Positions 1 to 16,542 of a stretch of 27,873 bases of DNA are shown piece by piece (the stretch's first letter is position 1; every line of letters begins with the position of its first letter). The notes beneath the pieces are model-generated. The model did no database searches. It saw only the letters and a program-made list of their open reading frames with translations, and had not been told where the DNA came from. The position numbers and the translations under genes are program-made. Source of the stretch: a virus (lineage: Duplodnaviria; Heunggongvirae; Uroviricota; Caudoviricetes); the IMG/VR virus record IMGVR_UViG_2778261450_000008, positions 1 through 27,873 of that record; one strand, 5' to 3'.

Positions 1-933
1 ATGGACAACGACAAAATTGATCAACACAGCGACGAAATTGAAGTTGAGAGCGAAGAAAAAGAGCGCGGCAAAAAAATAGAAATAGATGAAGACCGACTCC
101 CCTCCCGGGCGATGGCAATTCATGAGCATATCCGCCAGGATGGTGAAAAAGAGCTGGAACGCGACGCAATGGCGCTACTGTGGTCAGCCATTGCGGCGGG
201 TCTGTCGATGGGCGCTTCGCTACTGGCAAAAGGGATATTTCATGTCGAACTGGAAGGAGTGCCAGGCAGCTTCTTACTGGAGAATCTCGGTTATACCTTT
301 GGTTTTATTATCGTCATTATGGCCCGCCAGCAATTATTTACCGAAAACACCGTGACTGCGGTACTACCCGTCATGCAAAAACCGACAATGAGCAACGTCG
401 GCTTACTTATGCGATTATGGGGCGTCGTGCTGCTGGGTAATATTCTCGGGACAGGTATTGCTGCATGGGCATTTGAATATATGCCTATCTTCAATGAAGA
501 AACTCGCGATGCATTTGTCAAAATCGGCATGGATGTGATGAAGAACACCCCCAGCGAGATGTTTGCCAACGCGATCATTTCCGGCTGGCTGATCGCCACT
601 ATGGTTTGGATGTTTCCTGCTGCGGGTGCGGCAAAGATTGTGGTGATTATATTGATGACCTGGCTTATTGCACTGGGTGACACCACCCACATCGTTGTCG
701 GTTCTGTTGAAATCCTCTATCTGGTGTTTAACGGCACGCTGCACTGGAGCGATTTCATCTGGCCCTTCGCACTACCTACTTTAGCGGGGAACATCTGCGG
801 CGGCACCTTTATCTTCGCGTTAATGAGTCATGCACAGATTCGTAACGACATGAGCAACAAGCGTAAAGCAGAAGCACGCCAAAAAGCAGAACGTGCGGAA
901 AACATTAAGAAAAATGATAAAAACCCAGCATAA
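1..933 (+). CDS. yfdC: Formate/nitrite transporter (FNT) family inner-membrane channel, host gene flanking the prophage
   Basis: 310-aa ORF starting at ATG at position 1; multi-pass hydrophobic protein matching my recollection of E. coli K-12 YfdC, the gene next to argW and the CPS-53 integration site. Not searched. Confidence 0.88.
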   Translation: MDNDKIDQHSDEIEVESEEKERGKKIEIDEDRLPSRAMAIHEHIRQDGEKELERDAMALLWSAIAAGLSMGASLLAKGIFHVELEGVPGSFLLENLGYTFGFIIVIMARQQLFTENTVTAVLPVMQKPTMSNVGLLMRLWGVVLLGNILGTGIAAWAFEYMPIFNEETRDAFVKIGMDVMKNTPSEMFANAIISGWLIATMVWMFPAAGAAKIVVIILMTWLIALGDTTHIVVGSVEILYLVFNGTLHWSDFIWPFALPTLAGNICGGTFIFALMSHAQIRNDMSNKRKAEARQKAERAENIKKNDKNPA

Positions 934-968
934 ATGGCGAGGGTTTAAGCAATCGAGCGGCAGCGTAC

Positions 969-997
969 TTACCCCGCAGTCCATTAGCGGGTATACT
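969..997 (+). promoter_or_regulatory. Candidate sigma70 promoter for the tRNA-Arg gene
   Basis: TATACT (992-997) about 11 nt upstream of the tRNA 5' end, weak -35-like TTACCC (969-974) at 17-bp spacing, and a GC-rich discriminator (catgccgc) typical of stable-RNA promoters. Motif reading only. Confidence 0.35.
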
Positions 998-1008
998 CAT
1001 GCCGCATT

Positions 1009-1083
1009 GTCCTCTTAGTTAAATGGATATAACGAGCCCCTCCTAAGGGCTAATTGCAGGTTCGATTCCTGCAGGGGACACCA
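1009..1083 (+). tRNA. argW: tRNA-Arg (anticodon CCU); prophage attachment site (attL side)
   Basis: 75-nt sequence GTCCTCTTAGTTAAATGGATATAACGAGCCCCTCCTAAGGGCTAATTGCAGGTTCGATTCCTGCAGGGGACACCA; acceptor stem pairs with the 3' end, CCT anticodon in the loop, GGTTCGATTCC T-arm. An integrase gene follows immediately. Confidence 0.93.
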
Positions 1084-1208
1084 TTTATCAGTTCGCTCCC
1101 ATCCGTACCAGTCCGCAAAATCCCCTGAATATCAAGCCTTCCGTAGATTCACAGTTCGTCATGGTTCGCGTCAGATCGTTGACAGCCGCACCCCATGACG
1201 GGTAAAAA

Positions 1209-2402
1209 GTGGATAAAATAATTTTACCCTCCGGATTTTTACCCATGCTCACCGTTAAGCAGATTGAAGCAGCAAAGCCGAAAGAAAAACCATACCGCCT
1301 TCTCGATGGTAATGGCCTGTACCTTTATGTCCCTGTATCCGGGAAAAAGGTATGGCAGCTTCGCTACAAGATTGACGGTAAGGAGAAAATCCTGACCGTC
1401 GGAAAATATCCGTTTATGACTTTGCAGGAGGCAAGGGATAAGGCATGGACTGCGAGGAAAGACATCTCGGCTGGCATCGATCCGGTAAAGGCGAAAAAGG
1501 CTTCGTCTAACAACAATTCCTTTAGTGCGATTTACAAGGAATGGTACGAGCACAAGAAGCAAGTCTGGTCAGTAGGCTATGCAACTGAACTTGCAAAAAT
1601 GTTTGATGACGACATTTTACCTATCATCGGCGGCCTTGAAATTCAGGATATTGAGCCGATGCAACTTCTGGAAGTAATCCGCAGATTTGAAGATCGCGGT
1701 GCAATGGAGCGAGCAAATAAAGCCCGCAGAAGATGCGGCGAGGTTTTCCGTTACGCTATTGTCACTGGTAGGGCTAAATATAACCCGGCACCTGACCTTG
1801 CTGACGCCATGAAGGGATACCGCAAGAAGAACTTCCCGTTTCTTCCTGCCGACCAGATCCCGGCATTCAACAAAGCACTTGCAACATTTTCAGGAAGTAT
1901 CGTATCGCTCATTGCGACAAAAGTTTTACGCTACACAGCCCTCAGAACAAAAGAGCTTCGTTCCATGCAATGGAAGAACGTCGATTTTGAAAACAGGATT
2001 ATCACCATTGACGCCAGTGTGATGAAGGGACGCAAAATTCATGTGGTTCCGATGTCGGACCAGGTAGTTGAACTTCTCACTACGCTAAGCTCCATCACTA
2101 AACCAGTATCAGAGTTTGTTTTTGCCGGGCGCAACGATAAGAAAAAGCCAATCTGCGAGAACGCGGTGCTACTTGTGATAAAACAAATCGGCTATGAGGG
2201 TCTGGAAAGCGGTCACGGATTCAGGCATGAATTCAGCACGATTATGAACGAGCACGAATGGCCTGCCGACGCCATTGAAGTGCAACTGGCACATGCCAAC
2301 GGCGGTTCTGTGCGCGGGATTTACAACCATGCGCAGTATCTCGATAAACGCAGGGAAATGATGCAATGGTGGGCGGACTGGCTTGATGAAAAGGTGGAGT
2401 GA
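1209..2402 (+). CDS. intS: Prophage tyrosine integrase (site-specific recombinase); likely true start is ATG at 1245
   Basis: The track ORF begins on GTG at 1209. From MLTVKQIEAAKPKEKPYRLLDGNGLYLYV it matches my recollection of CPS-53 IntS. C-terminal HGFRHEF and IYNHAQY are consistent with a tyrosine recombinase catalytic region. It sits directly beside the tRNA. Confidence 0.9.
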   Translation: MDKIILPSGFLPMLTVKQIEAAKPKEKPYRLLDGNGLYLYVPVSGKKVWQLRYKIDGKEKILTVGKYPFMTLQEARDKAWTARKDISAGIDPVKAKKASSNNNSFSAIYKEWYEHKKQVWSVGYATELAKMFDDDILPIIGGLEIQDIEPMQLLEVIRRFEDRGAMERANKARRRCGEVFRYAIVTGRAKYNPAPDLADAMKGYRKKNFPFLPADQIPAFNKALATFSGSIVSLIATKVLRYTALRTKELRSMQWKNVDFENRIITIDASVMKGRKIHVVPMSDQVVELLTTLSSITKPVSEFVFAGRNDKKKPICENAVLLVIKQIGYEGLESGHGFRHEFSTIMNEHEWPADAIEVQLAHANGGSVRGIYNHAQYLDKRREMMQWWADWLDEKVE

Positions 2403-2555
2403 TCCACCTTAACCACTATCGAAGAGCGCAAAGCCTAGCAATCCAGTGCAAAGCTTTGTGTGCATCAGTTTTGTCTCATCAACCACAGCAAGTCATCGAT
2501 CGATTGAGACTTGGATGATAGACTTCATGCCTTTGATTATTAGCTGATAGAAGAA

Positions 2556-2918
2556 ATGTTAAAGCTATTTGCAAAGTACACCTCGATTGGTGTGCTGAAC
2601 ACACTTATACACTGGGTGGTTTTTGGTGTATGTATCTATGTCGCGCATACAAACCAAGCTCTTGCAAACTTCGCAGGTTTTGTTGTGGCTGTGAGTTTTA
2701 GCTTCTTCGCGAATGCAAAATTCACATTCAAAGCATCAACTACAACGATGCGCTACATGTTATATGTCGGGTTCATGGGAACACTGAGTGCAACTGTTGG
2801 ATGGGCTGCTGATAGATGTTCACTTCCTCCAATTGTCACTCTCATCACCTTCTCAGCCATCAGTCTTGTGTGCGGTTTCGTCTATTCAAAGTTCATTGTC
2901 TTTAGGGATGCGAAATGA
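2556..2918 (+). CDS. gtrA: GtrA-family bactoprenol-linked glucose translocase (flippase)
   Basis: 120-aa, four predicted membrane helices, matches my recollection of YfdG/GtrA; first gene of a three-gene operon after int, with a 4-nt overlap with gtrB. Confidence 0.85.
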
Positions 2919-3841
2919 AGATATCTCTTGTAGTTCCTGTCTTCAATGAAGAAGAAGCAATACCAATTTTTTATAAAACGGTACGTGAATTCGAAGAGTT
3001 GAAGCCATACGAAGTGGAAATTGTTTTCATAAATGACGGCAGCAAAGACGCTACGGAGTCAATTATTAATGCTCTGGCTGTTTCAGATCCTCTAGTTGTT
3101 CCGCTGTCATTTACACGAAACTTTGGTAAAGAACCAGCATTATTCGCAGGGTTAGACCATGCAACAGGCGATGCTGTTATTCCAATTGATGTTGACCTGC
3201 AAGACCCGATTGAGGTTATTCCTCATCTTATTGAAAAGTGGCAGGCAGGTGCTGATATGGTGCTTGCTAAACGATCTGACCGCTCAACGGATGGCAGACT
3301 GAAGAGGAAAACCGCCGAGTGGTTCTATAAGCTTCACAATAAAATCAGCAATCCGCAGATCGAGGAAAATGTTGGTGATTTCCGTCTGATGTCTCGTGAA
3401 GTCGTAGAGAACATTAAGCTCATGCCAGAACGCAACCTTTTCATGAAGGGTGTTTTGAGTTGGGTTGGTGGTCGCACTGATATCGTTGATTATGCCCGCG
3501 CAGAACGTGTTGCTGGCAGTACCAAGTTCAACGGATGGAAGTTGTGGAATCTTGCTCTTGAGGGAATTACGAGCTTCTCGACTTTTCCGCTACGTATGTG
3601 GACTTACATCGGCCTTCTCGTCGCTGGCTTAGCATTTACATATGGCGCATGGATGATTCTGGACACTCTGGCGTTTGGAAACCCGGTTAGAGGTTATCCA
3701 TCCCTGCTAGTATCTATACTTTTCCTTGGTGGTATCCAACTCATTGGTATTGGTGTTCTTGGTGAGTACATTGGACGAATTTATATTGAAACAAAGCAAA
3801 GGCCGAAATATCTTTTAAAGAGTTCTAAAAATGAAAAATAA
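2915..3841 (+). CDS. gtrB: GtrB-family bactoprenol glucosyltransferase (GT2 family)
   Basis: 308-aa with an N-terminal GT2 signature (VVPVFNEEE...INDGSKD...DVDLQDP) and C-terminal membrane helices; YfdH/GtrB-like. Confidence 0.88.
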
Positions 3842-5291
3842 CATTAAGATTTACTTATTTATCACATTCTTACTTGCGCTCCCAATTATAATTGCAAATG
3901 TTTACTACAGCGATGATATGAGCAGAGCAATGAGCGGCGTAACTTATTGGGGAATTGATGGTAGACCATTATCAGATAGATTAATGATTATTCTTAATTT
4001 TAACAATCATCTAACTGACTTGGCTCCATTGCCTCTAATAATAGCATGTTTGCTATTGTCTATTTCATTTTATCTATTTCACATTAAATTATTTAATTCA
4101 GATAATCATTATCTTTTTTTACCGTTGTCATTTTTATTAAGTCCATTTATAATCGAACCTCTATCATACAGGTTTGATAGCTTAACCATCTCAGCTTCGA
4201 TATTTTTTGCATTTGCATTTATTTGTCTAAACTATAAAAACACGGTAATTTCATTTATTTTACATTCTAGCTTTATAGTTATCTTATTTTCATTTTACCA
4301 AGCATCTATTAATATAGTTTTTATATTAATCTCTATAGAAATGTTTGTTAACATAAAGAATAATAAAGAGCCAACACACATAATAAAGTCAATTGCATTT
4401 CGAATTATCGAAGTATTGGTTGGCGCTGTTATCTATATGAGGGTTGTACTGCCGTTAACTCATGTTAATGACAATAGTCAAAATCACCCAGGAGTTGCCA
4501 CAAATATTATAGATGTAATTCATAAGAACTTTATTGCGTATTATGATTTCTACACTAGAAATATAATCCCTGAGCATGGGAGTGAATTATTAATTGGTAG
4601 TTTTATTGTATCATTTGCATTTGCCATTAAATTGGTTTTTGTTTACATTAAAAAACACAAGTGTAATGCTGCTGTTTTTTTATCTTTGATGGCAGTGTTA
4701 TCATTACCTTTGACTTTTATATCATCAATGATTTCATTACTTCTCCTTGAAAACACTCTAACAACTTTTGCAAGGGTTTATATTGGGTTTAATGGTCTTT
4801 TTTTATTCATCTTCACCCTTTTATATTTGGGAATAAATAACACAAGAATTGTCAACGGTATATTTTTAATATTCCTTTTTTATATAATTACTCTTTTTTA
4901 TTCATATGGAAATGCTTTGCGAGCACAAGATGATAAAAATAAATACATTGCTGAAATTATTGGGCTAGCGTTAAAAAACATACCCGAAAATAGTGTTAAT
5001 GTTATGTTTAATGGTAGTTCACCAAAATCCCCTATACTACTTAATTCAGAATTAAATTATCCACTATTCAAAACAATAGTACTCGACTACTTCTATAACT
5101 GGTATGGCTCTCATGTATACCTCAAGATTAGAGGAGTAAATCAAAATTATCCTGATTTTTCCAGTAAAGAAGTATCTATGTTCATGAAGGACTATTGTAA
5201 ATCAACACTAATTTATTCATCTAATGATATTAAAATTTATCGTGATAATGAGAATGTAATGGTGAGTTTTGATGATTCTTTATGTAAATAA
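3831..5291 (+). CDS. GtrC-type serotype-specific O-antigen glucosyltransferase (polytopic membrane protein)
   Basis: 486-aa, very hydrophobic, strongly AT-rich codon usage, third position of the gtr operon and overlapping the gtrB stop. The specificity subunit is normally the most divergent and most recently acquired. Confidence 0.7.
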
Positions 5292-5306
5292 ACACCACAA
5301 TTAAGC

Positions 5307-5337
5307 AAAAGACCATCTCCTAAAGATATGGTCTTTT
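5307..5337. terminator. Bidirectional intrinsic terminator between gtrC and the tailspike
   Basis: Perfect 10-bp inverted repeat AAAAGACCAT / ATGGTCTTTT with an 11-nt loop; A-run on the left and T-run on the right, so it can act on either strand. Confidence 0.5.
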
Positions 5338-5349
5338 GCAGAAACAATT

Positions 5350-5380
5350 AAAGCCGTTGAATATAAAAATTAACGGCTTT
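5350..5380. terminator. Second hairpin in the convergent gtrC/tailspike intergenic region
   Basis: 9-bp inverted repeat AAAGCCGTT / AACGGCTTT with a 13-nt AT-rich loop; the T-run is weak, so termination is uncertain. Confidence 0.3.
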
Positions 5381-5387
5381 CTTATAG

Positions 5388-7193
5388 CTAAATTAGTTTA
5401 ACATCTACATTTCCTGCCGTTATCGGATCTTCAAGAACAGATGCTATGAATCTTACGACTGTGACAGCGCCAGTACCACCATAAACATATCCTTGAATTA
5501 GGTTTGGTGTTGTAGAAGAATCTCGACGAAAGTTAGATGAATTTACTGTTATGTACAAATTAAATGAATTTGTGCCATTGTTCTCAAACCTAAATATTGG
5601 CAAAGAAATTGGTGGATTTGCTGGGACAACCTGAAATTGACATCCATTTATCACCATTGTACCGTCATAAATAGATGGCGAAGCTTGGACTACTGCTATT
5701 CTTTCCCCCTTTACATTCTCACTTCCACAACTATTCATTGTTATTCCATGAGGGTTATTGAAAAGATAAGCTCTTGATATTGTCTCAGTAGTACCAGACA
5801 TAGGAAATATAGAATCAGCAGTACAACAATTTAGTGTTGTGTACTGTTGAGCGTCAATTTCAAAACCAATTTGATAATTAACAACTCCCACCTGGTCTAG
5901 AAGATTACTTGTTCCAGAAAGGTTATATATACCATCCCTCACTTTACCTAAATAAAAACCAGTAAACTGCCCAATAGCCAAACCTAAAAAACCGCACCGT
6001 TCAAATATATTTGAGAAGCAATCTTCACCCCAAAAACCATAATACCCACATTCTACACGCAAGTCTCTTAACAAACTTGAAGCCATGTAAGGAGAGTATA
6101 TTCCATATGTTGGTTGATTATTTCTATCTATAATTTCATGACGTCTTAAAGTAACACCTTGTATCTCTACGCCTGTAGCATAGTTATCACTCTCAACACC
6201 ATCTACAACGAATTTTTTTGGAAGAATAATCAGCAGTGCATCCACTGAGACTCCAGAAATTATGGTGTTCGCGTTATTTGTTGTTTTAGAGATAATCGTC
6301 TTATTTTGACCTTGACCTATGATTCCAGACCATGACTTTACAACAGGACTTTCGGAGGTTAGATATTCACCTGACATAAAATGAATAGGGGTATTATTAT
6401 CATATCCATATGATAAAGCCTTTGATATTGCAGAGGCGTTGTCAAAATCATTTATCGGTTTTGCTCCAAAATACTCTACCCATATCTCACCATCAACAAC
6501 CCTCCTCCAAGCAAATTTACCTGAACTTGGAACAATAACAATCCCTCCATCATCGGCAATCTGTGATGTGCTATTGTCGAAAGACTGGAAGTAACCACCG
6601 CCATAATGTTTTTCAGTTGCTGTAGCACTTGCTGCTGAAGCTACATAGACAATTTCTCCAGCAACTAATGGTATTGAATCCCTCAGCGCATCTAAATTGA
6701 GAAAGTTGCCTATGTGGCGAAAGCCATCATCAGCAGCCAAGTCACTTCTCAACGTATCTATTTTATGGGCATTATTGTCAAGAGCATCTTTGACAGTTTC
6801 ATCTCCATAACCAACCAGAGATGCGCCATCAGGGCCAGAAAGCTCAGCCCTTAACTGATCTGGAGAATATTTCAGTAGATCAGGATAATAGAATTGTTGT
6901 GCGCCATACGCATCATATACAGCCATGGAGTGATTCTGTACAGTTACGAACTTGGTAATCTGTCCGTTATATACGGGGTAACCAGCAGCATTAATGATGA
7001 TTGGTTGCGAAACAGGAACGTGAGAACCGTCTTCGTTCTCTATATAAACCTGAATCTGGTTTTCAGGATTTACCGGGTCAGTGTCAATTTTACCGATATA
7101 AATTTTGCCATTGGCTACAGCTTTAAAAGAACGAGCCATAGTGAAGAGTTGAGAAGGCATGCTTACCACAACATTTGCGGTGATATCTGACAT
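5388..7193 (-). CDS. Tailspike protein: P22-type N-terminal head-binding domain fused to a distinct receptor-binding (probable polysaccharide depolymerase) domain
   Basis: The track ORF starts at 7241 but a GGAG Shine-Dalgarno precedes the ATG at 7193. From there [46 protein letters not shown]... closely matches my recollection of the P22 gp9 N-terminus. The remainder does not match P22 and its 3' part is visibly AT-rich. Confidence 0.85.
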
Positions 7194-7314
7194 TTCATTG
7201 CTCCAGACGAATGATATGATGCAACCATGATTTGATTGCATACCGAAATGGTACTATTGAGTATTTATCCAGTAGGTTACGATGCCATTCCACCCAACTG
7301 GTGAGGCATCAAGG
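7194..7314. promoter_or_regulatory. Divergent intergenic region between tailspike and mnt; candidate promoter/operator
   Basis: 121-bp AT-rich spacer between two divergent starts. It contains TTGATT (7233-7238), a TACC-N5-GGTA inverted repeat (7241-7253) and TATTGA/TATTTA elements. Inferred from position only. Confidence 0.3.
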
Positions 7315-7575
7315 ATGTACAGCAAATACGACGAGGCGCAGTTTCACTTGAGACTTCCGCATGAACTTCACGCGAAAATTAAACAGCGCGCGAAGATGAA
7401 TAACAGGTCACTGAACTCAGAGATAATTGCAGCGATTGAAGAATCATTGGCTAAACAAAGCTTTGCATCAGTTTACATTGACGATGCAGAGCGTATGGCA
7501 GAACAACAATCTGATATGGTTAAGAAAATTGTCTTTGATACGCTCAAAGAGCTATATAAAAAAGACAGCAGCTAA
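7315..7575 (+). CDS. mnt: Mnt-like ribbon-helix-helix repressor (Arc/Mnt family); alternative start at 7282
   Basis: C-terminus DAERMAEQQSDMVKKIVFDTLKELYKK matches my recollection of P22 Mnt (DAERLADEQSELVKKMVFDTLKDLYKK); the N-terminal RHH region aligns from MYSKYDEAQFHLRLP. No arc or ant ORF is adjacent. Confidence 0.75.
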   Translation: MYSKYDEAQFHLRLPHELHAKIKQRAKMNNRSLNSEIIAAIEESLAKQSFASVYIDDAERMAEQQSDMVKKIVFDTLKELYKKDSS

Positions 7576-7595
7576 CCATCAGTTACGGAGGATTT

Positions 7596-7673
7596 ATGCA
7601 AAGAGATATGCTGAATATTGCGTTATACATATTTGGTTTTTGCACGTTCCTGGTGTTTGCGAAGCTATTCTGA
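7596..7673 (+). CDS. Candidate 25-aa hydrophobic membrane peptide (MQRDMLNIALYIFGFCTFLVFAKLF)
   Basis: ATG preceded by GGAGG at ideal spacing (acGGAGGatttATG), 20 nt after the mnt stop; single predicted transmembrane helix; its 3' end overlaps the gp16-like gene on the opposite strand. Too short for the supplied track. Confidence 0.35.
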   Translation: MQRDMLNIALYIFGFCTFLVFAKLF

Positions 7674-9662
7674 CAACGCATCAGACTTGGCACCCTGAGT
7701 CAGGGCGTTAATGGCCTTTTGCGCCTGCTGCATGGCTTTCTCAAACGCTGTTGATCCGCGTGGGGTGTTTGCCATTCGGAGCATTGCATTTCTGAATGGC
7801 TCGCTCTCATAGGCGCGAGTAAGAAGTCCGTAGCTTACCGCTGCGCCAGTTGTCGCCGGGTTCATTGCCGTCCCATATCCGATAATGAACGGGATGGTTT
7901 GCTGCCCTGTTGGTGTTGTTACTGCTGCTTTTGCAGCCTGCTGCGTGGATTGCAGGTAGTTTTTCAATCCTTTCAGATAAGCGGCTTCATGACCTTTAAA
8001 TGTGATGCCAGTCTGGTTTTGCAGGATATTAAGCTGCCGAAGGAACTGGTCAGGGGATCCGCCAGATTTCTCCATCGCCTTTCCAATGATGCCATTGCGC
8101 ATTTGCGCCCTGCCAACACGACCAACTGAGTTATACAGCGTCTTAATTTCCGATTTGTTCTTGCTGAATAGCATGTTGTTGACAACTTCCGGCGTCAGGT
8201 CGCCTTTCATGAGAACATTCTTCAGCCTGGTATTCTTTAGTTTCGCAGCTTCGTCAGCATAGACGGCATTGGCCTGCTGATATTTACGGAGGGTATCGTT
8301 GCCAAGATTCTGACCAATGGCACCATTGATATCGTCAGTCATTGCCTTGTAAACGCGCTGAATGGCAGCATCGGAACGGTTTGGTAACACTGGTCGCTCA
8401 CCCTTTACGTCCATTCTGAACTGGCTGCGCAGATCGCTTAATTGCTTCAAATCCAGATTTACCGGACCATCAGGACCAGCATTGCGAACAAGCTCATCAC
8501 GATAGGACTGAAGTTTTGAAATAGTCTCGTTATCAGCAACCTTACCAAGCTTCTGCAGGTTAGATATTTCTGTATCAATCTGCTGAATTGCTCGCGCAGG
8601 CTGAATGTTTACTCCAGCCATAGCATTCTGAACCTGCTCCAGTCGATTACCGGCGGCACGACGAATTCCTGATGTTTTCGCTTTAAGGCTGTCAATAACA
8701 ACCGCTGGATCATACTCGCCGAATTTATCAGCAAATCTCTGCACCAACTGACTTCTCGCTTCCTGTTGCGTTGCTCTCATTCCGCTTGTGCCAGCCAGTG
8801 GTATATTTTCTGCTGTAGTCTGCGCCATTTTCCCGACGCGGGAAGTAGGCTGTAACAGGTCTGTGGTGTGCAGAGGAACTCCTTCACGCTCTGCAAATCT
8901 GATAGCCTGCTGCGCTTCTGGCGCAATAGAACCACGAACGCCACGATAAGCAGCACCTAATCCACGTCCGGCAGCGTTAATAGCACCGCCAGCCAGCACA
9001 CCAACGCCTAAATCGGTGGCGAGTGCTTCCGCATCATCTTTCGCACTATTTGCAGCAAGTGATCCAACTGCGTTTTCAGCGAGAAGGCGAGTTGCCCCCT
9101 GAGCAATTCGACCAGCAAGTGTTGGTGCCTGTGTTGCCGCTCTCTCAACGCCAGCAGGAGTGAGGTAAGGCAATGCTTCAGCAAATACCCTTCCCTCTGT
9201 CGTTTGTGGAGTCATCGCGCCTTGCTGAAGGCCAAAGTCCTGCTCTAATCCCTGCGTTGTTACTCGTGGCGCTGGTTGATATGTACCATCGCCAATGCCG
9301 AGTTTACCGCCAGCCCAAGCCGCCGCGCTTGTTACAGCATCGGCAACTGATGCAGGTATGTTTGCCACGTTCACGCCAGCCTGCACCAGTCCGCGACCAG
9401 TCTCTTTCACTGCTTCACCAAGATCAGACATAAATCCACTTTGCTGTGGTTGTAGCTGTGCTACTGGTTGCTGTGTCTCCACTGGCTGCACAGATGGCAA
9501 TGGATAGGCTGCATAGAAAGCTTGCTTAGCCTGCTCTGCATTTTCTCCGGCTTGCGGGGCCACGACTTCATTGAAGTATTGCTCCTGAGCCTGCGCTTTT
9601 TGTTCTGGTGCTAACGCCTGATACTGTGGAGAGGCGATAACATCTTTCCATGCTTTAGCCAT
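7665..9662 (-). CDS. Ejection (internal virion) protein, P22 gp16 positional homologue
   Basis: 665-aa Ala/Gln/Gly-rich protein, last of three consecutive genes in the position of P22 7-20-16; its ATG overlaps the stop of the upstream gene (TAATG). Assigned by synteny and composition. Confidence 0.65.
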   Translation of the reverse strand: MAKAWKDVIASPQYQALAPEQKAQAQEQYFNEVVAPQAGENAEQAKQAFYAAYPLPSVQPVETQQPVAQLQPQQSGFMSDLGEAVKETGRGLVQAGVNVANIPASVADAVTSAAAWAGGKLGIGDGTYQPAPRVTTQGLEQDFGLQQGAMTPQTTEGRVFAEALPYLTPAGVERAATQAPTLAGRIAQGATRLLAENAVGSLAANSAKDDAEALATDLGVGVLAGGAINAAGRGLGAAYRGVRGSIAPEAQQAIRFAEREGVPLHTTDLLQPTSRVGKMAQTTAENIPLAGTSGMRATQQEARSQLVQRFADKFGEYDPAVVIDSLKAKTSGIRRAAGNRLEQVQNAMAGVNIQPARAIQQIDTEISNLQKLGKVADNETISKLQSYRDELVRNAGPDGPVNLDLKQLSDLRSQFRMDVKGERPVLPNRSDAAIQRVYKAMTDDINGAIGQNLGNDTLRKYQQANAVYADEAAKLKNTRLKNVLMKGDLTPEVVNNMLFSKNKSEIKTLYNSVGRVGRAQMRNGIIGKAMEKSGGSPDQFLRQLNILQNQTGITFKGHEAAYLKGLKNYLQSTQQAAKAAVTTPTGQQTIPFIIGYGTAMNPATTGAAVSYGLLTRAYESEPFRNAMLRMANTPRGSTAFEKAMQQAQKAINALTQGAKSDALSE

Positions 9663-11056
9663 TAATCACCCCATAGTGAAGAAAAGTTACTGCTGGCTGC
9701 TGGCTGTGATACCTGTGCAGGTTGAGATTGCTGCCGCTGAGATTTACCAACATTAACGTTATATTGTTGGTTGTAATTGTTGGTGTATTCCTGAATCTCA
9801 CGAATCGACTGCTGCATAGCCTCCGGGCTTGAATAGTCAATCTGCGGCATCCCCTGAAAATACATCTTCGCTTCTGCAACGGTGTTAATACCACTGGCAC
9901 CCATGTCCCTTGCTGCCGCCACACCCTGATTCTGCATTCTGCCCTGAATCCGTTGTGCTGAGTTATATAACTGGCGCTGCTCTTTTCCTGTTAATCTGCT
10001 GCGAACATCAGCACCAATTGCTGGATTACCTGCACCGCCTGTCATTCCTGTCATGAAATCGAGAGCAGAAGCGTCTGCATTTGCGATCGCGTCGATATCC
10101 TTCTTCATGGCATAGTTTTGTGCTGATGCAGACGATGTTGCAGGCGCTGCGATTGAACTGGCAGGAACGCGAACCATATTCCCCTCGTTGTCGATGCCTT
10201 CGTAGAACGCATTTGCCCCAGCGCCGTGAAGTTTCCCGCCAACCGTTACAGTTCTGCCATCTGATAACTGAACTGTACGCTCATCATTCCCAGCGGTTCC
10301 TCTTGTTGACGCTCGCTGCATTGCCAAATCCTGCCCGCGTCGCGCAGTAGAAGCAGATAAATCCTGACCGCGCATCGTGATGTTCTGACCTCGTGCTGTT
10401 AGCGCCTCGCCAGCCTGATTGCTGCGGATTGTCTCTGCAAGTTTTCCGCGATCAATCTCACGCCCAACGATTCTGTCTTGCGCCTGAAAATATTGTTCTG
10501 GACCAAGTGCAGCCATTCCAAGGTGATCAACAAACTCTGTGAAACCTTGTGGATTTTGCTGATACATTTTCGCCACATCCAGAGGGTCTACTCCGGCACG
10601 AGTAAGCTCAGATGAGTTGTTCTGCAACCATGACATCATGGCTTCTGGAGATGAAGCTGCGAGTCTGGCACTTGCTGCCAGTGTACCGACAGTGGAACGC
10701 TGGTCTTCATCGACAAATTTCATGCCGTTTCTTACAGCGTCAAACTGCTCAGGATACTGTGATGCCAGCTTTCGCATTGCATCGCGGTCACCAGATGTAT
10801 ATGCATCAGCATAAGCCTGCTGAAACTCTTGCTGCCGCTTCTGCTGATCCATCTGCTTATACATATCCATGACAGATGAAATGCCCTGCAAAGCCTGCAA
10901 GCCAACGTTATTACGTCCTGAACGCTCCATCTCGTTATTCTGTCGAATGTATGCAAGCGTGGCGTCTGCATCACTTGCTCTTGGAGCGTTGGAGTTCATG
11001 CCGCCTAACCCGGCAAGAAGCGCACCTGAATTACCAGCCTGTTGCCATGTAGCCAA
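9662..11056 (-). CDS. Ejection protein, P22 gp20 positional homologue
   Basis: 464-aa, about the size of P22 gp20, Gln/Ala-rich. Apparent TTG start preceded by a strong GGAGGTG Shine-Dalgarno. Assigned by synteny. Confidence 0.65.
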
Positions 11057-11068
11057 GAGACACCTCCA

Positions 11069-11728
11069 TTAAAAAAGTGAACCAAGAAGACCGACGCCAG
11101 CACCAATTGCTGTACCCCAACCAGGCATGATTGCAGTACCTGCAGCTGCACCTGCTGCCGCTCCACCCAAGGCGCTCTGAAATCCTGATGGTTTATTCGC
11201 ATTAGCCGCAGATGCTGCCGCCTGCTGTTGATACAATTGGCTGACGTTGTTAGCGTAGTTCTGTCCGGCATTTGCCTGACCTGTAAGAGCACCAAGGCCG
11301 ATATTTGCCAGATTGTTGTAGTTGTTCATCTGACCTGACAGCCAGTTTTGACCGAGTGTAGGTGCGATTGCTGCTAACTGGTTTCCTGTTGCTGTGGAGC
11401 CTAATCCACCCGTTGCCTCTGCTGCTGCCAGACTCTGGTAACGCGCCTGCCCTGCAAGGTCTTTATACTGCTGGGAGTTGTAATACTGGTTAAGCGCCTG
11501 ACCTTGCCCCTGAAGAGAGGAAAGATTTTGCAACTGTGATACGTACTGCTGAGCGAGTGGCGTGAACGGTGCAAGGTTTTGCATGTTCGTCTGCCACATT
11601 TCGCGCTGCAGTTCGATGCCCTTTTCAGTTGCGCGTGCCTGGGCTTTAGAGCCGGAGTCGCTGCCACCTTTCATATACCCATTCATGGGAAGCAATTTAT
11701 TCTTGAAGCTTTCGCTAAGTACTAACAT
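11069..11728 (-). CDS. Ejection protein, P22 gp7 positional homologue
   Basis: 219-aa with a Gly/Ala-rich C-terminus, in the gp7 position between the gp14-like and gp20-like genes; start could be 11728 or the downstream MNGYMKGG. Confidence 0.6.
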   Translation of the reverse strand: MLVLSESFKNKLLPMNGYMKGGSDSGSKAQARATEKGIELQREMWQTNMQNLAPFTPLAQQYVSQLQNLSSLQGQGQALNQYYNSQQYKDLAGQARYQSLAAAEATGGLGSTATGNQLAAIAPTLGQNWLSGQMNNYNNLANIGLGALTGQANAGQNYANNVSQLYQQQAAASAANANKPSGFQSALGGAAAGAAAGTAIMPGWGTAIGAGVGLLGSLF

Positions 11729-12185
11729 TTAATAGCTCCTCATATTTCGAACGAGGTAATTGATAGAGGGTGATTCCTACCGGTTTTCCGTTACTCATGT
11801 ACGCATCATCAAGGTGACCAACACGGGTAGCGCCAAGCAAACGGATAATTGCCCGTCCGTATTTCGTGGTGTCAGGAACCATGGTGATGCTGTTAAGGAA
11901 TGGTGAGTTTTCGAGAAGCCATTTGCAGAATAATCGATGCCCTTGCAGTGCATATTCGCCACGGAATCCGGGGTCGTACACCGCATGGCATTCAACAATG
12001 CTATGCCAGAAGTTACGCACTTCATGAACGCCGGCCAGCACTAATCCTTCGTAGATGCCGAGGTATACCGCATCAGGCTTGATGTAGTATTTATCTCTAC
12101 TGTCTACGATATTTCCCGTGTTTTCTGGATTGTTGAGGAATTCTGCAAGCTTCACCGGATTATCGATGAGCTTTATTTCCATCAC
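11715..12185 (-). CDS. P22 gp14 positional homologue (virion-associated protein)
   Basis: 156-aa ORF between the needle and gp7-like genes, overlapping both neighbours as expected for translational coupling. Confidence 0.6.
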
Positions 12186-13030
12186 TGCTCCGCAATGATT
12201 TTGATGGCTGTGGCAGTAAACGCCGCACCATTTGACTGAATGGTTAACGTGCTGCCATTTGTGGCAAGAAAGCCGTCTTTATCCACACTGAAGAACGTAG
12301 CTAACAGGATGTTGTCGGTTGTTGTCGCCGAGTTGCGACTGCTTACCAGTGTGTCAGGAACAGAACCGGAGAATGTTAGCTGCATTGACCTGTTGGCGGT
12401 TCCGCTGGGCCACGTCCCGACGATCGACAGCTTGAAGAACAAGGTTTTGTTCTCGTTGAACACAACCATCTTGTTGTTAACGGTGTCGAAGAATGGTGCC
12501 AACGCGCCGGATGACGGCGTGAGCGTTTTCAGCAGGCTAACAAGGTTGGTCGGCGCTGTCGGGATGGTTACAGATACGCCAGAGTAAACAACCTCTGACT
12601 TCTTGCGAGTAGTGGCATACTCCAGAGCATCGATGCGCGTTTCATGGTCTGAAAGCGTGTTTTGAATGGCGACAACTTCATCCGTCAGGTAATCAATATC
12701 GTTTTCTGCTGTCGTTAATCGTGAATCAAGGCCGACTATCGCCGCTTCTGCGTTAGTGATCCTTGTTTCGTGGTCCTGAATCTTCGCTTCAGCTGATGCC
12801 AGTCGAATTTCGTGATCGACAAGAATCACATCCTGCTCATCGTTCCTGACTTGTGCGTCATAAGCTCCCTGTCCGGCCTCGTTGGCCTTGTTAGCCACAT
12901 TACCAACATCAGTACCCTGTGCAATAACGTACAGCAGATATGACTGCGAGAAGATATTACGCGGAAGGACTGATGTGTCGAGTCGTGTAGCCTGAATGAT
13001 TACCGGCTCATTGAGATTCGAATCAGCCAT
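12182..13030 (-). CDS. Tail needle (P22 gp26 family) with a C-terminal knob-like extension
   Basis: From the ATG at 13030 (TAATG overlap with the gp10 stop) [43 protein letters not shown] closely matches my recollection of the P22 gp26 N-terminus; a coiled-coil repeat region follows, then about 120 extra C-terminal residues. Confidence 0.85.
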
Positions 13031-14448
13031 TACTCGATCCTTATCTGGCAGCCAGACAGAGTGACAGGTGACTTCGTGATAACGCGCAATTTGAATCCGA
13101 CATTTTTCCTTATTCGCCCGACACGCTTCCACAAAACGCGTTTGTCGTAAACGAACGGTTCATTCTGCTCAATCATCTGCTCACGCCCGTAATTGATGCC
13201 GTCAGTGGTTGCAGAGAGAAAAAGGCGGTCAGCATACTGCGCAACTCCAGTTGACGATTCAACTTCAAGGTCGAAAACTCTGGCGTTATCCGCTTTGAAC
13301 AACGGAGTAAACAGCAGGTGTTCCTGCTGCTTGTCGTACTGGCTGCTGATATCGAACTGCAATTTCCCGGTCACGGATTCCAGCTTATCGCCGCACGTTA
13401 TCTGATTGCCTTCGTAAATGAAGTCGATAGCGCGGTACACATCGTCATACAAGCCAGTTTTCAACACACACCATTGCGGACCATTGGCGCTTGAAGATGC
13501 GTCGTACACGAGAACATGGCGCGCAAGATGGATAATCAGCAACTCATGCGCATCAAATCGTAGAGACTCCATCACGCCATCAGCCAGTTCATCAGCAGTG
13601 TAGGAGCGTAGTATTTTCTCAATGCTCGCGCTGGCGATTGGTGATACCTGACCGGAGCCGATGATATACACAGACGGCGCACCCGTTGCCGGATTGCTGA
13701 TGAACGCATAGGAATCAGCAAACGGCGTTTTGCAGTAAGTTCCGGCAATGCCTTTCTGCACCATCAGCGATGGCTGTGCGACATACAACGCGGCACCAAC
13801 AGTGGTTGCACCAGTCAGGGAGAAATATTCAATCGTTGATGAACCAAAGCAGACAATGAAGTCTCGCCATGTTCCGATGCCGATGATACCGTCAGGCTGA
13901 GACTCGGCACGATATTGTGCGCTGTATCGGTCAGGATGTGATTCGTCTTCAAGGTCAGTGATAAACCATGAATCAGTGCCGTCTTTTGACCACGCATAAC
14001 GCCCACGTAAGCGTGTAATGTCGCGGACTGAGCCTAACTCATACTGAGTGAATCCGCTATCAGTAGGCCAGTTTGAGACGGTTTTAACCGTGCCATCATA
14101 GCGATACTCGACCAGTTGCCCGTTAACGCCAACCGCCTGTGATGTCCTACCATGAGCCAATGATACACGACCACTTCCGGCAACATCGCCGACTTCACTT
14201 TCTCCCTTATACAACTTGCCACCACACACGCGATAAACAGCATTCTGCGCCATGTTGTACTCGACGCCGCGAGATACACCGTTCACATCAGAACGTTTGG
14301 CAATGCCCGGGAATGAGCGAAGATATCCGCTGCTGTTGAGGATTTCTTTGGGTGTAGCCAACATATTCACTGGCAGATAGTCGATATAGTCGGCGTTTCG
14401 GAAGTCTTTGCCGACACCTTTCATAAGCGGAAGTTGCTGAATCGGCAT
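13030..14448 (-). CDS. Tail/head-completion protein, P22 gp10 homologue
   Basis: 472-aa; [49 protein letters not shown]... is near-identical along its length to my recollection of P22 gp10. Confidence 0.9.

Positions 14449-14926: not shown

Positions 14927-14949
<23 letters not shown>
14449..14949 (-). CDS. Tail accessory protein, P22 gp4 homologue (166 aa from the ATG at 14949)
   Basis: [33 protein letters not shown]... aligns with the P22 gp4 N-terminus ([33 protein letters not shown]); AAGG Shine-Dalgarno upstream. The SQSQ-repeat extension in the track ORF is an upstream out-of-frame read-in. Confidence 0.85.
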
Positions 14950-15199
<250 letters not shown>

Positions 15200-15211
15200 G
15201 CTTGTCTCCAG

Positions 15212-15235
15212 ATAAAAATGGGAGCCGAAGCTCCC
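15212..15235 (-). terminator. Intrinsic terminator just downstream of the coat gene
   Basis: On the - strand: GGGAGC-UUCG-GCUCCC (6-bp GC-rich stem, UUCG tetraloop) followed by AUUUUUAU, beginning about 10 nt after the coat stop. Confidence 0.6.
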
Positions 15236-15243
15236 TCTGGTTA

Positions 15244-16542
15244 TCACGCGGTCTGGTTAGGCAGACCAACACCAATTGCCTCTGGTCGTACAGCACATGC
15301 TGAATACCACACAGCAATACGGCACTTGCCAGACAGAGTGTTGATATCACCCTGCGTTGCGAAGATGCCGTTAACACCAATGCCAGGAATGCTGAAGGAA
15401 GAAGTTTTCATGCCAGCAAACAGTTCATGGGTTACCGGGATCGGCTGAGACAGCAGGCGGATTGAGTCATCAGCCCAGAACACGTTAGCGGTGGTTGTTG
15501 CCACGTTCAGAACGTTTACCGGAGCGGCATCAGCAAGAGAGGTGTTTACGTTAGCGTAAGCCTTCTCTTCTTTTGTCAGTGAAGCGTCATCAAGCGCAAT
15601 CGGCTTCGGCGTGATTTCGATGTGAGTACCATCGATCACACGGGTGATTGAGAAAGTCGCATCATCAGTTAGCACGTTCTTCGCCATCTGAGACAGGAAT
15701 TTCACACCAGTGAAACTGATTTTGTCGCCGCGCTTAAATCCGGTGGTGGAGGATACGGTCACCGTTGCAACACGGTTGTCGACGTTCTCTTTGTTACCAT
15801 CGGTATCAAGGGTGTATGCCTGCGGCTTAAACTTCTGCGCACCAGAAACAGTTACACCAGTAGCGGTTGACTTGGTAACTGCCGGAAGTTTCGGTGAGCG
15901 AAGAATTTCATCAAAGCCAGCAATCTGACGCTGAATAGTACCGTTGCGATACGCTTCTTCAGGAACGCGACCGAAGATGTCACCATCTACCAGGTTGCGG
16001 CCTGCTTTGCGGTAATCGTCAGGGTTCAGGAAGTAACTGATGCCCATGTCGCGGTTGAGTTCGCGGGAGAACATCAGGCGCTCTGCATCAGACACAAAAT
16101 CCCAGCCAGACAGGCCAGTAGATGGACCAATTGCGCGGGTATCGTGAACAACAAGCGAGCCCATTTCAGTTGCCTGTTTGGCAATCGCTGACTCAATGTT
16201 ATTCGCCAGTTTTTTGGCGGATGCCTGGATGCGGCGACGGTAAGAACGCTCATCACGCAGGTCATCTGCACGAAGCTCGAAGAAATCGTTATCCGGATCG
16301 CCCATGTTGCATTTCACGGAGAGTTCCAGAATCCCTGTTGCGTTGCCAGTTAAATCCCAGCCAGTCTGGGTTGGCGATTCCTGCTCAACAGGCATCCACA
16401 CGGTGTTGCTTGAACGCTGCATGGATTCTGCCGGAGGGGTGTATTTTGTCACTTTGGACGCCATTGGCGTCAGGTTCTGGACGGTTTCAATGATTTCATC
16501 CAGAGCATATGTGACCAGTTGACCTTCATTTAATGCCATCAT
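15244..16542 (-). CDS. Major capsid (coat) protein, P22 gp5 homologue (HK97 fold)
   Basis: 432-aa; [27 protein letters not shown]...NRDMGISYF...[21 protein letters not shown]... is collinear with and highly similar to my recollection of P22 coat protein. Confidence 0.93.

Follow-up and report, generated by a model that had tools for sequence, protein, structure and literature searches.

The window analysed here, that is, the whole stretch of 27,873 nucleotides, is, judged by its sequence, a segment of the Escherichia coli chromosome in which a P22-like prophage is integrated at argW beside yfdC. Over bases 1-1200, which comprise the yfdC and argW flank, the identity to E. coli genomes is 100%. 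From this flank to the tail hub gene, the features of the window are the following:

1-933: yfdC (formate/nitrite transporter family)
1009-1083: argW, tRNA-Arg(CCU)
1209-2402: tyrosine integrase
2556-5291: gtrA/gtrB/gtrC-like O-antigen modification (glucosylation) cassette, converging on the tailspike gene
5388-7241, minus strand: tailspike with a P22 head-binding domain
7665-9662, minus strand: 665-aa open reading frame (ORF) in the gp16 position
9662-11056: gp20 homologue
11069-11728: gp7 homologue
11715-12185, minus strand: gp14/Sf6 gp10 homologue (DUF2824; PF11039, E 6.8e-64), directly downstream of the needle gene
12182-13030, minus strand: tail needle gene (Sf6 gp9/P22 gp26 homologue), from the ORF and its translation, 282 codons plus a TGA stop
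13038-13042, minus strand: Shine-Dalgarno-like AAGGA, read from the sequence, 7 nt upstream of the needle ATG
13030-14448, minus strand: gp10/Sf6 gp8 homologue, the tail hub and docking partner of the needle (PF11134, Phage_stabilise, E 2.9e-300)

The junction and the arrangement of the gtr cassette at window positions 1-5291 suggest a serotype-converting prophage; the same gene order is presumably found at argW in E. coli K-12, where it corresponds to the CPS-53/KpLE1 element. Taken as a whole, the window is most similar to phages IME10 and APC_JM3.2, with about 96% identity over about half of the window. The tailspike has a P22-type head-binding domain (residues 17-129, E 7.8e-66), followed by a receptor-binding body with a weak pectate-lyase-like match (E 1.6e-4) that lies below the Pfam cut-off. 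This body differs from that of the best whole-window phage matches, whose alignments begin around window position 6850. The gap between the tailspike and the 665-aa ORF is only about 420 bp long (window 7242-7664); the corresponding interval of P22 holds the immI region (sieA, mnt, arc, ant). A 97-aa ORF on the plus strand of this gap (7282-7575) encodes an Arc/Mnt-like motif, HLRLPHELHAKIKQRAKMNNRSLNSEIIAAIEESL, which suggests that the gap is a reduced immI region with a putative ribbon-helix-helix repressor. As to the 665-aa ORF itself (7665-9662), unlike all its neighbours it gave no Pfam match at E <= 0.001.

The needle gene lies between the gp10 (hub) and gp14 homologues of a P22-like morphogenesis operon, in the same order as in Sf6 and P22. 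The genes follow one another as coat, gp4, gp10, needle, gp14, gp7, gp20 and tailspike, all of them strongly matched by Pfam families, and upstream of gp10 the window holds gp4, coat, scaffold, portal, the large and small terminase subunits and Q. The homologues of gp4, coat, scaffold, portal, terminase, gp7, gp20 and tailspike are all encoded on the strand of the needle gene.

A small minus-strand ORF (14927-15247) is placed between the coat gene and gp4 and contains a tandem repeat of the hexanucleotide TCTGGC (14997-15054; 9.7 copies, 100% match), which encodes (EP)n in this ORF. Read in the -1 frame, the repeat gives (SQ)n and falsely lengthens the gp4 ORF upstream to 15060; the true start of gp4 is probably the ATG at 14949, giving 166 aa as in P22. 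Among related phages, the length of the region varies by multiples of 6, a query of 361 nt matching segments of 355, 343, 337 or 319 nt, and the copy number of the repeat therefore appears to be polymorphic. In the record of APC_JM3.2 a repeat_region is annotated at the same site.

The needle ORF is intact and is read on the minus strand from an ATG at 13030 to a TGA stop at 12184-12182, giving a protein of 282 aa. The coordinates 12182-13030 of the preliminary description, which was made from the DNA sequence with no database searches, are therefore exact and do enclose an intact ORF, with the strand left unstated; the peptide of 27 residues quoted there corresponds to residues 201-227 of the protein. 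In a mechanical ORF list the frame begins earlier, with a GTG (13132). We favour the ATG at 13030 over this GTG because AAGGA stands 7 nt upstream of it and because it takes part in a TAATG overlap, in which the A of the needle ATG is common to the TAA stop of the upstream gp10 gene. At the other end, the needle stop overlaps the start of the downstream gp14 homologue in a GTGATG junction. The overlaps at both junctions reproduce the arrangement of Sf6 genes 8-9-10, where genes 9 and 10 each begin on the final base of the gene before (Sf6 genome record). By analogy with Sf6 gene 10, the gp14 homologue likely starts at the ATG at 12182.

The needle protein can be divided into three domains, and part of the second is a cassette that is divergent from Sf6:

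12851-13030, minus strand: N-terminal domain, aa 1-60, for binding to the gp10 hub and plugging of the channel by homology (49/60 residues identical to P22 gp26)
12611-12850, minus strand: coiled-coil shaft, aa 61-140 (gapless alignment to the P22 gp26 helical core)
12653-12820, minus strand: divergent shaft cassette, aa 71-126, mosaic relative to Sf6
12185-12610, minus strand: C-terminal knob, aa 141-282, a TNF-like jellyroll in homologous crystal structures (PF16532 and identity to 3RWN/4K6B)

In its first half the protein is of the gp26 type, with an N-terminal hub-binding domain followed by a coiled-coil shaft. The N-terminus matches PDB 8EAP_B (gp26 residues 1-62) with an E value of 7e-28, and residues 1-70 are 98.6% identical to Sf6 gp9; a plug role has been described for this needle domain (PMC3741392, PMC9728967). 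PHROG 1219, "tail needle protein", covers residues 1-146 (E 5.9e-55), and the shaft gives weak matches to many coiled-coil Pfam families. The composition changes along the protein: 31% of the residues are charged in the shaft vs 13% in the C-terminal part, where serine and threonine make up 27%.

A BLASTP comparison with P22 gp26 returned a single gapless alignment of residues 1-137 with residues 1-137 (83/137 identical, 61%; E 6e-56), in which identity falls from 82% over residues 1-60 to 44% over residues 61-137. The expectation that the N-terminal 60 or so residues and the coiled coil would match gp26 was thus borne out, as was that of a protein about 50 residues longer, the difference being 49 aa (282 vs 233 aa). 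The additional length might have come from a longer coiled coil in an otherwise P22/HK620-type needle, with the usual tip and no knob. Shaft length does vary in the family, with 16 heptads in HS1 vs 11 in Sf6 and P22 (PMC3741392), and the N-terminus and part of the shaft resemble HK620. This reading is nevertheless already refuted and keeps a vanishingly small probability: past residue 137 of the needle protein BLASTP gave no alignment to gp26, the 7% ungapped identity over residues 138-233 is that of unrelated sequences, and the C-terminus is an almost perfect match to PF16532 and to the crystallised knobs. An alignment of the C-terminus with the P22 tip, which had been named in advance as the outcome that would speak against a knob, was therefore looked for and did not appear. 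Residues 141-233 of P22 gp26 reportedly form a triple beta-helix followed by an inverted coiled-coil tip. They are unrelated to residues 141-282 of the needle described here, whose C-terminus does not belong to the P22-type tips (subtypes A-C, Leavitt et al. 2013). The knob had been called an added domain; it is indeed a distinct C-terminal domain, but it takes the place of the 93-residue C-terminal domain of P22 (aa 141-233) rather than being appended to it, and it begins at about residue 140, not at about residue 160 as had been thought.

The knob is identified by several matches, of which that to Pfam lies far beyond chance. PF16532 (Phage_tail_NK, Sf6-type phage tail needle knob) covers residues 109-282 with an E value of 1.9e-108 and 360.2 bits against a cut-off of 27, spanning positions 2-175 of the 175 of the profile, and PHROG 1030, "tail needle knob", covers residues 1-282 (E 2.3e-133). 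In a sequence search of the PDB, residues 131-282 were identical at 149/152 positions to 3RWN (Sf6 knob) and likewise at 149/152 to 4K6B (HS1 knob), while the needles of P22, HK620 and related phages (2POH, 3C9I, 5BU5, 4ZKP) matched only the first 144-153 residues. The beta-rich C-terminal knob proposed in place of the P22 tip is supported by all these matches. Leavitt et al. 2013 (PMC3741392) describe both the Sf6 and the HS1 knob as a homotrimer with a TNF-like jellyroll fold of seven antiparallel strands, in which the interfaces between subunits enclose three L-glutamates and the apex carries a phosphate; through its identity to 3RWN and 4K6B at 149/152 positions, the knob encoded here would adopt the same TNF-like jellyroll fold.

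The residues that contact the ligands in the crystallised knobs are E146, K200, S248, D250, L255 and K277 for L-glutamate and the triad S231-R232-N233 for phosphate, in Sf6 numbering (PMC3741392). All nine are identical in the needle studied here, which by homology would bind the same ligands. The knob differs from that of Sf6 only by T176A, S270A and T275A, none of which is a published ligand contact, and S270A is the state found in the HS1 needle (EcHS_A0316; knob 4K6B) of an E. coli prophage, which has Ala at the position of Sf6 Ser270. Divergence from Sf6 over aa 141-282 amounts to 2.1% and lies within the family maximum of 4.9% (PMC3741392).

The structure prediction that had been proposed for this region was run with AlphaFold2 on the full protein as a single sequence, with no alignment (mean pLDDT 59.9, pTM 0.43). 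The model contains one helix over residues 74-139, with mean pLDDT values of 86-93 in blocks of 10 residues over residues 81-130, and a beta-rich C-terminus of low confidence, in which the knob is mostly below 50-70 pLDDT. A Foldseek search of the PDB with this model gave significant matches only to 3RWN and 4K6B (E about 1e-13, rmsd about 13.5 A), and these are sequence-driven. Given the low confidence and the rmsd of about 13.5 A, the model therefore gives no independent structural evidence for the fold and contributes nothing beyond sequence identity. The fold of the knob is settled by the 98% identity to two crystal structures.

One of the closest known needles is gp9 of Shigella phage Sf6 (AAQ12199.1; knob 3RWN), a member of the knob-bearing P22-like phages of Escherichia/Shigella. 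It has the same length of 282 aa and the same gene position, between the gp10 and gp14 homologues, and it aligns over 282/282 residues with no gap and with 241/282 identities (85%), so that the comparison with Sf6 advised beforehand gave a full-length match. Identity reaches 98% over aa 127-282, and the N-terminus carries a single V8E difference. In fact, 37 of the 41 differences from Sf6 gp9 fall within aa 71-126 of the shaft, where identity drops to 34% for aa and 49% for nt, the flanks being about 98% (aa) and 91-96% (nt) identical; megablast matches to Sf6-like phages are split in two around this segment. On these sequence patterns, the segment is a cassette exchanged by recombination with respect to Sf6. 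Part of it, a 13-residue stretch, resembles HK620, and the same cassette is found in many public E. coli genomes, e.g., in a prophage of E. coli O128:H27 (strain 90-9281), whose needle is identical at 278/282 residues and is annotated as "tail needle knob protein".

Conserved ends with a swapped shaft are a known pattern in needle genes: the HS1 shaft is 67% identical to that of Sf6, while the ends are 98-99% identical (PMC3741392). The HS1 needle is 317 aa long with 16 heptads in the shaft, Sf6 gp9 has 11 heptads, and the needle described here has 282 aa like Sf6 (PMC3741392). HK620 had also been suggested as a comparator for the knob, for which it proved unsuited. Its needle (5BU5) is nearly identical over the N-terminal 66 residues and shares the shaft motif DxDYLxDEVxxIQ, but it has 233 aa and a P22-type (subtype A) tip with no knob, and it aligns only to residues 1-153 of the needle studied here.

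NCBI and UniParc both list the exact 282-aa sequence, under the name "tail needle knob protein [Escherichia coli]", from 15 contigs, and the 90% cluster of this sequence has 31 members, E. albertii among them. A DNA match to the gene was found in 944 of 5426 complete E. coli genomes, where the PGAP name is again "tail needle knob protein". This Sf6-type needle is hence already known, annotated and structurally characterised, and is ordinary. Among 164 P22-like genomes, 69 carry a knob-type needle, all of them from Escherichia/Shigella, and none of the 48 Salmonella phages does (PMC3741392); the E. coli host of the present prophage fits this published confinement of Sf6-type knobs to P22-like phages of Escherichia/Shigella.

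This wide distribution includes degraded elements. A small P22-like remnant with an Sf6-type needle gene in it is present in more than 100 E. coli genomes (PMC3741392), and only 311 of the 944 matching genomes cover at least 80% of the gene, so the gene described here might be a decaying relic of a defective prophage with no functional product. We consider this highly improbable, since the ORF is free of frameshifts and has the full Sf6 length of 282 aa, is preceded by a Shine-Dalgarno sequence and is coupled to both neighbours by start/stop overlaps, and since its product, apart from the shaft cassette, shares 98% identity with the Sf6 protein, which is functional. The surrounding gene set is also complete and intact, from integrase and gtrABC through tailspike, ejection proteins, head genes and terminases to Q. 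Nor is the locus the short P22-like remnant that is widespread in E. coli, the whole morphogenesis module being present and intact. Gene identity, domain layout, conserved ligand residues and genomic setting are direct observations, and it is almost certain that the protein is an Sf6-type tail needle of a P22-like (Lederbergvirus) E. coli prophage, whose presumed mechanism is outlined below.

P22 gp26 (PDB 2POH, 3C9I) has a homologous N-terminal plug domain and coiled-coil shaft and the same operon position, and a plug-and-release role is presumably common to gp26 and the present needle. By homology, three copies of the needle would form a fibre. The N-terminal 60 residues would insert in the gp10 tail hub and plug the channel, so that the packaged DNA is kept in the virion; residues 61 to about 140 would make up a trimeric coiled-coil shaft reaching beyond the tailspikes, and residues from about 141 to 282 a trimeric TNF-like jellyroll knob at the distal tip. 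At infection the tip would touch the outer membrane, after which the needle would be lost and the channel opened; the ejection proteins (homologues of gp7, gp20 and gp16, encoded just downstream) would then form a conduit, with the DNA following. The tip domain would set the speed of DNA delivery and not the choice of host. Trimerisation, plugging and the kinetic role are thus predicted from near-identity to characterised proteins. Sf6 gp9 has been modelled into a cryo-EM map of the Sf6 tail, where the N-terminal helical hairpins plug the hub (PMC9728967), and the passages of PMC9400499 that cite P22 cryo-ET describe a needle that contacts the cell surface early and is then lost, with the ejection proteins forming a conduit.

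The knob could instead be a receptor-binding determinant of host range, directed at an outer-membrane component of Escherichia/Shigella, like the fibre knobs of adenovirus and PRD1. The receptor-binding knobs of these two viruses also have the TNF-like fold, and the restriction of knob needles to 69 Escherichia/Shigella genomes, against 0 of 48 Salmonella phages in the survey of 164 (PMC3741392), points the same way, as do the E. coli flank in the window and the early meeting of the needle with the cell surface (same passages of PMC9400499). This possibility is nonetheless unlikely. P22 chimeras whose knob comes from Sf6 or HS1 show normal infection of Salmonella, the authors concluding that the knob confers no species specificity (PMC3741392). 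Moreover, the mutations that expand the host range of Sf6 all map to the tailspike, and the OmpC-binding region has been placed in the distal tail tip (PMC9400499); in the needle literature covered here, no receptor of the knob is reported.

Mutants of the glutamate contact sites likewise have no phenotype, and several tip changes slow the release of K+, that is, DNA delivery (PMC3741392). Because the knob chimeras infect normally, the glutamate-site mutants are silent and other tip changes slow K+ release, modulation of the kinetics of DNA delivery, and not host specificity, is the role of the tip that has the best support. The preliminary description had offered membrane penetration or host range as possible roles of the knob; the normal infection of Salmonella by the chimeras goes against the latter (PMC3741392). 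The cassette at aa 71-126 might be functionally selected rather than a product of neutral mosaicism, e.g., by adapting needle stiffness, stability or release kinetics to particular E. coli envelopes, or the knob with its buried glutamate might be a true trigger in natural E. coli hosts, a role that the laboratory chimeras, being tried in Salmonella, would not have revealed. Either is very unlikely and, if true, would be a finding on the family and not on this window.

The analysis confirms that the E. coli prophage at argW carries a needle tip of the Sf6 type and not of the P22 type, which matters little beyond correct annotation. The purpose of the knob and of the bound glutamate is a question for the whole family, which the present sequence makes no more tractable. 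In terms of genome evolution, the needle gene provides an example of fine-scale mosaicism, in which the ends have been kept and a shaft cassette has been exchanged.
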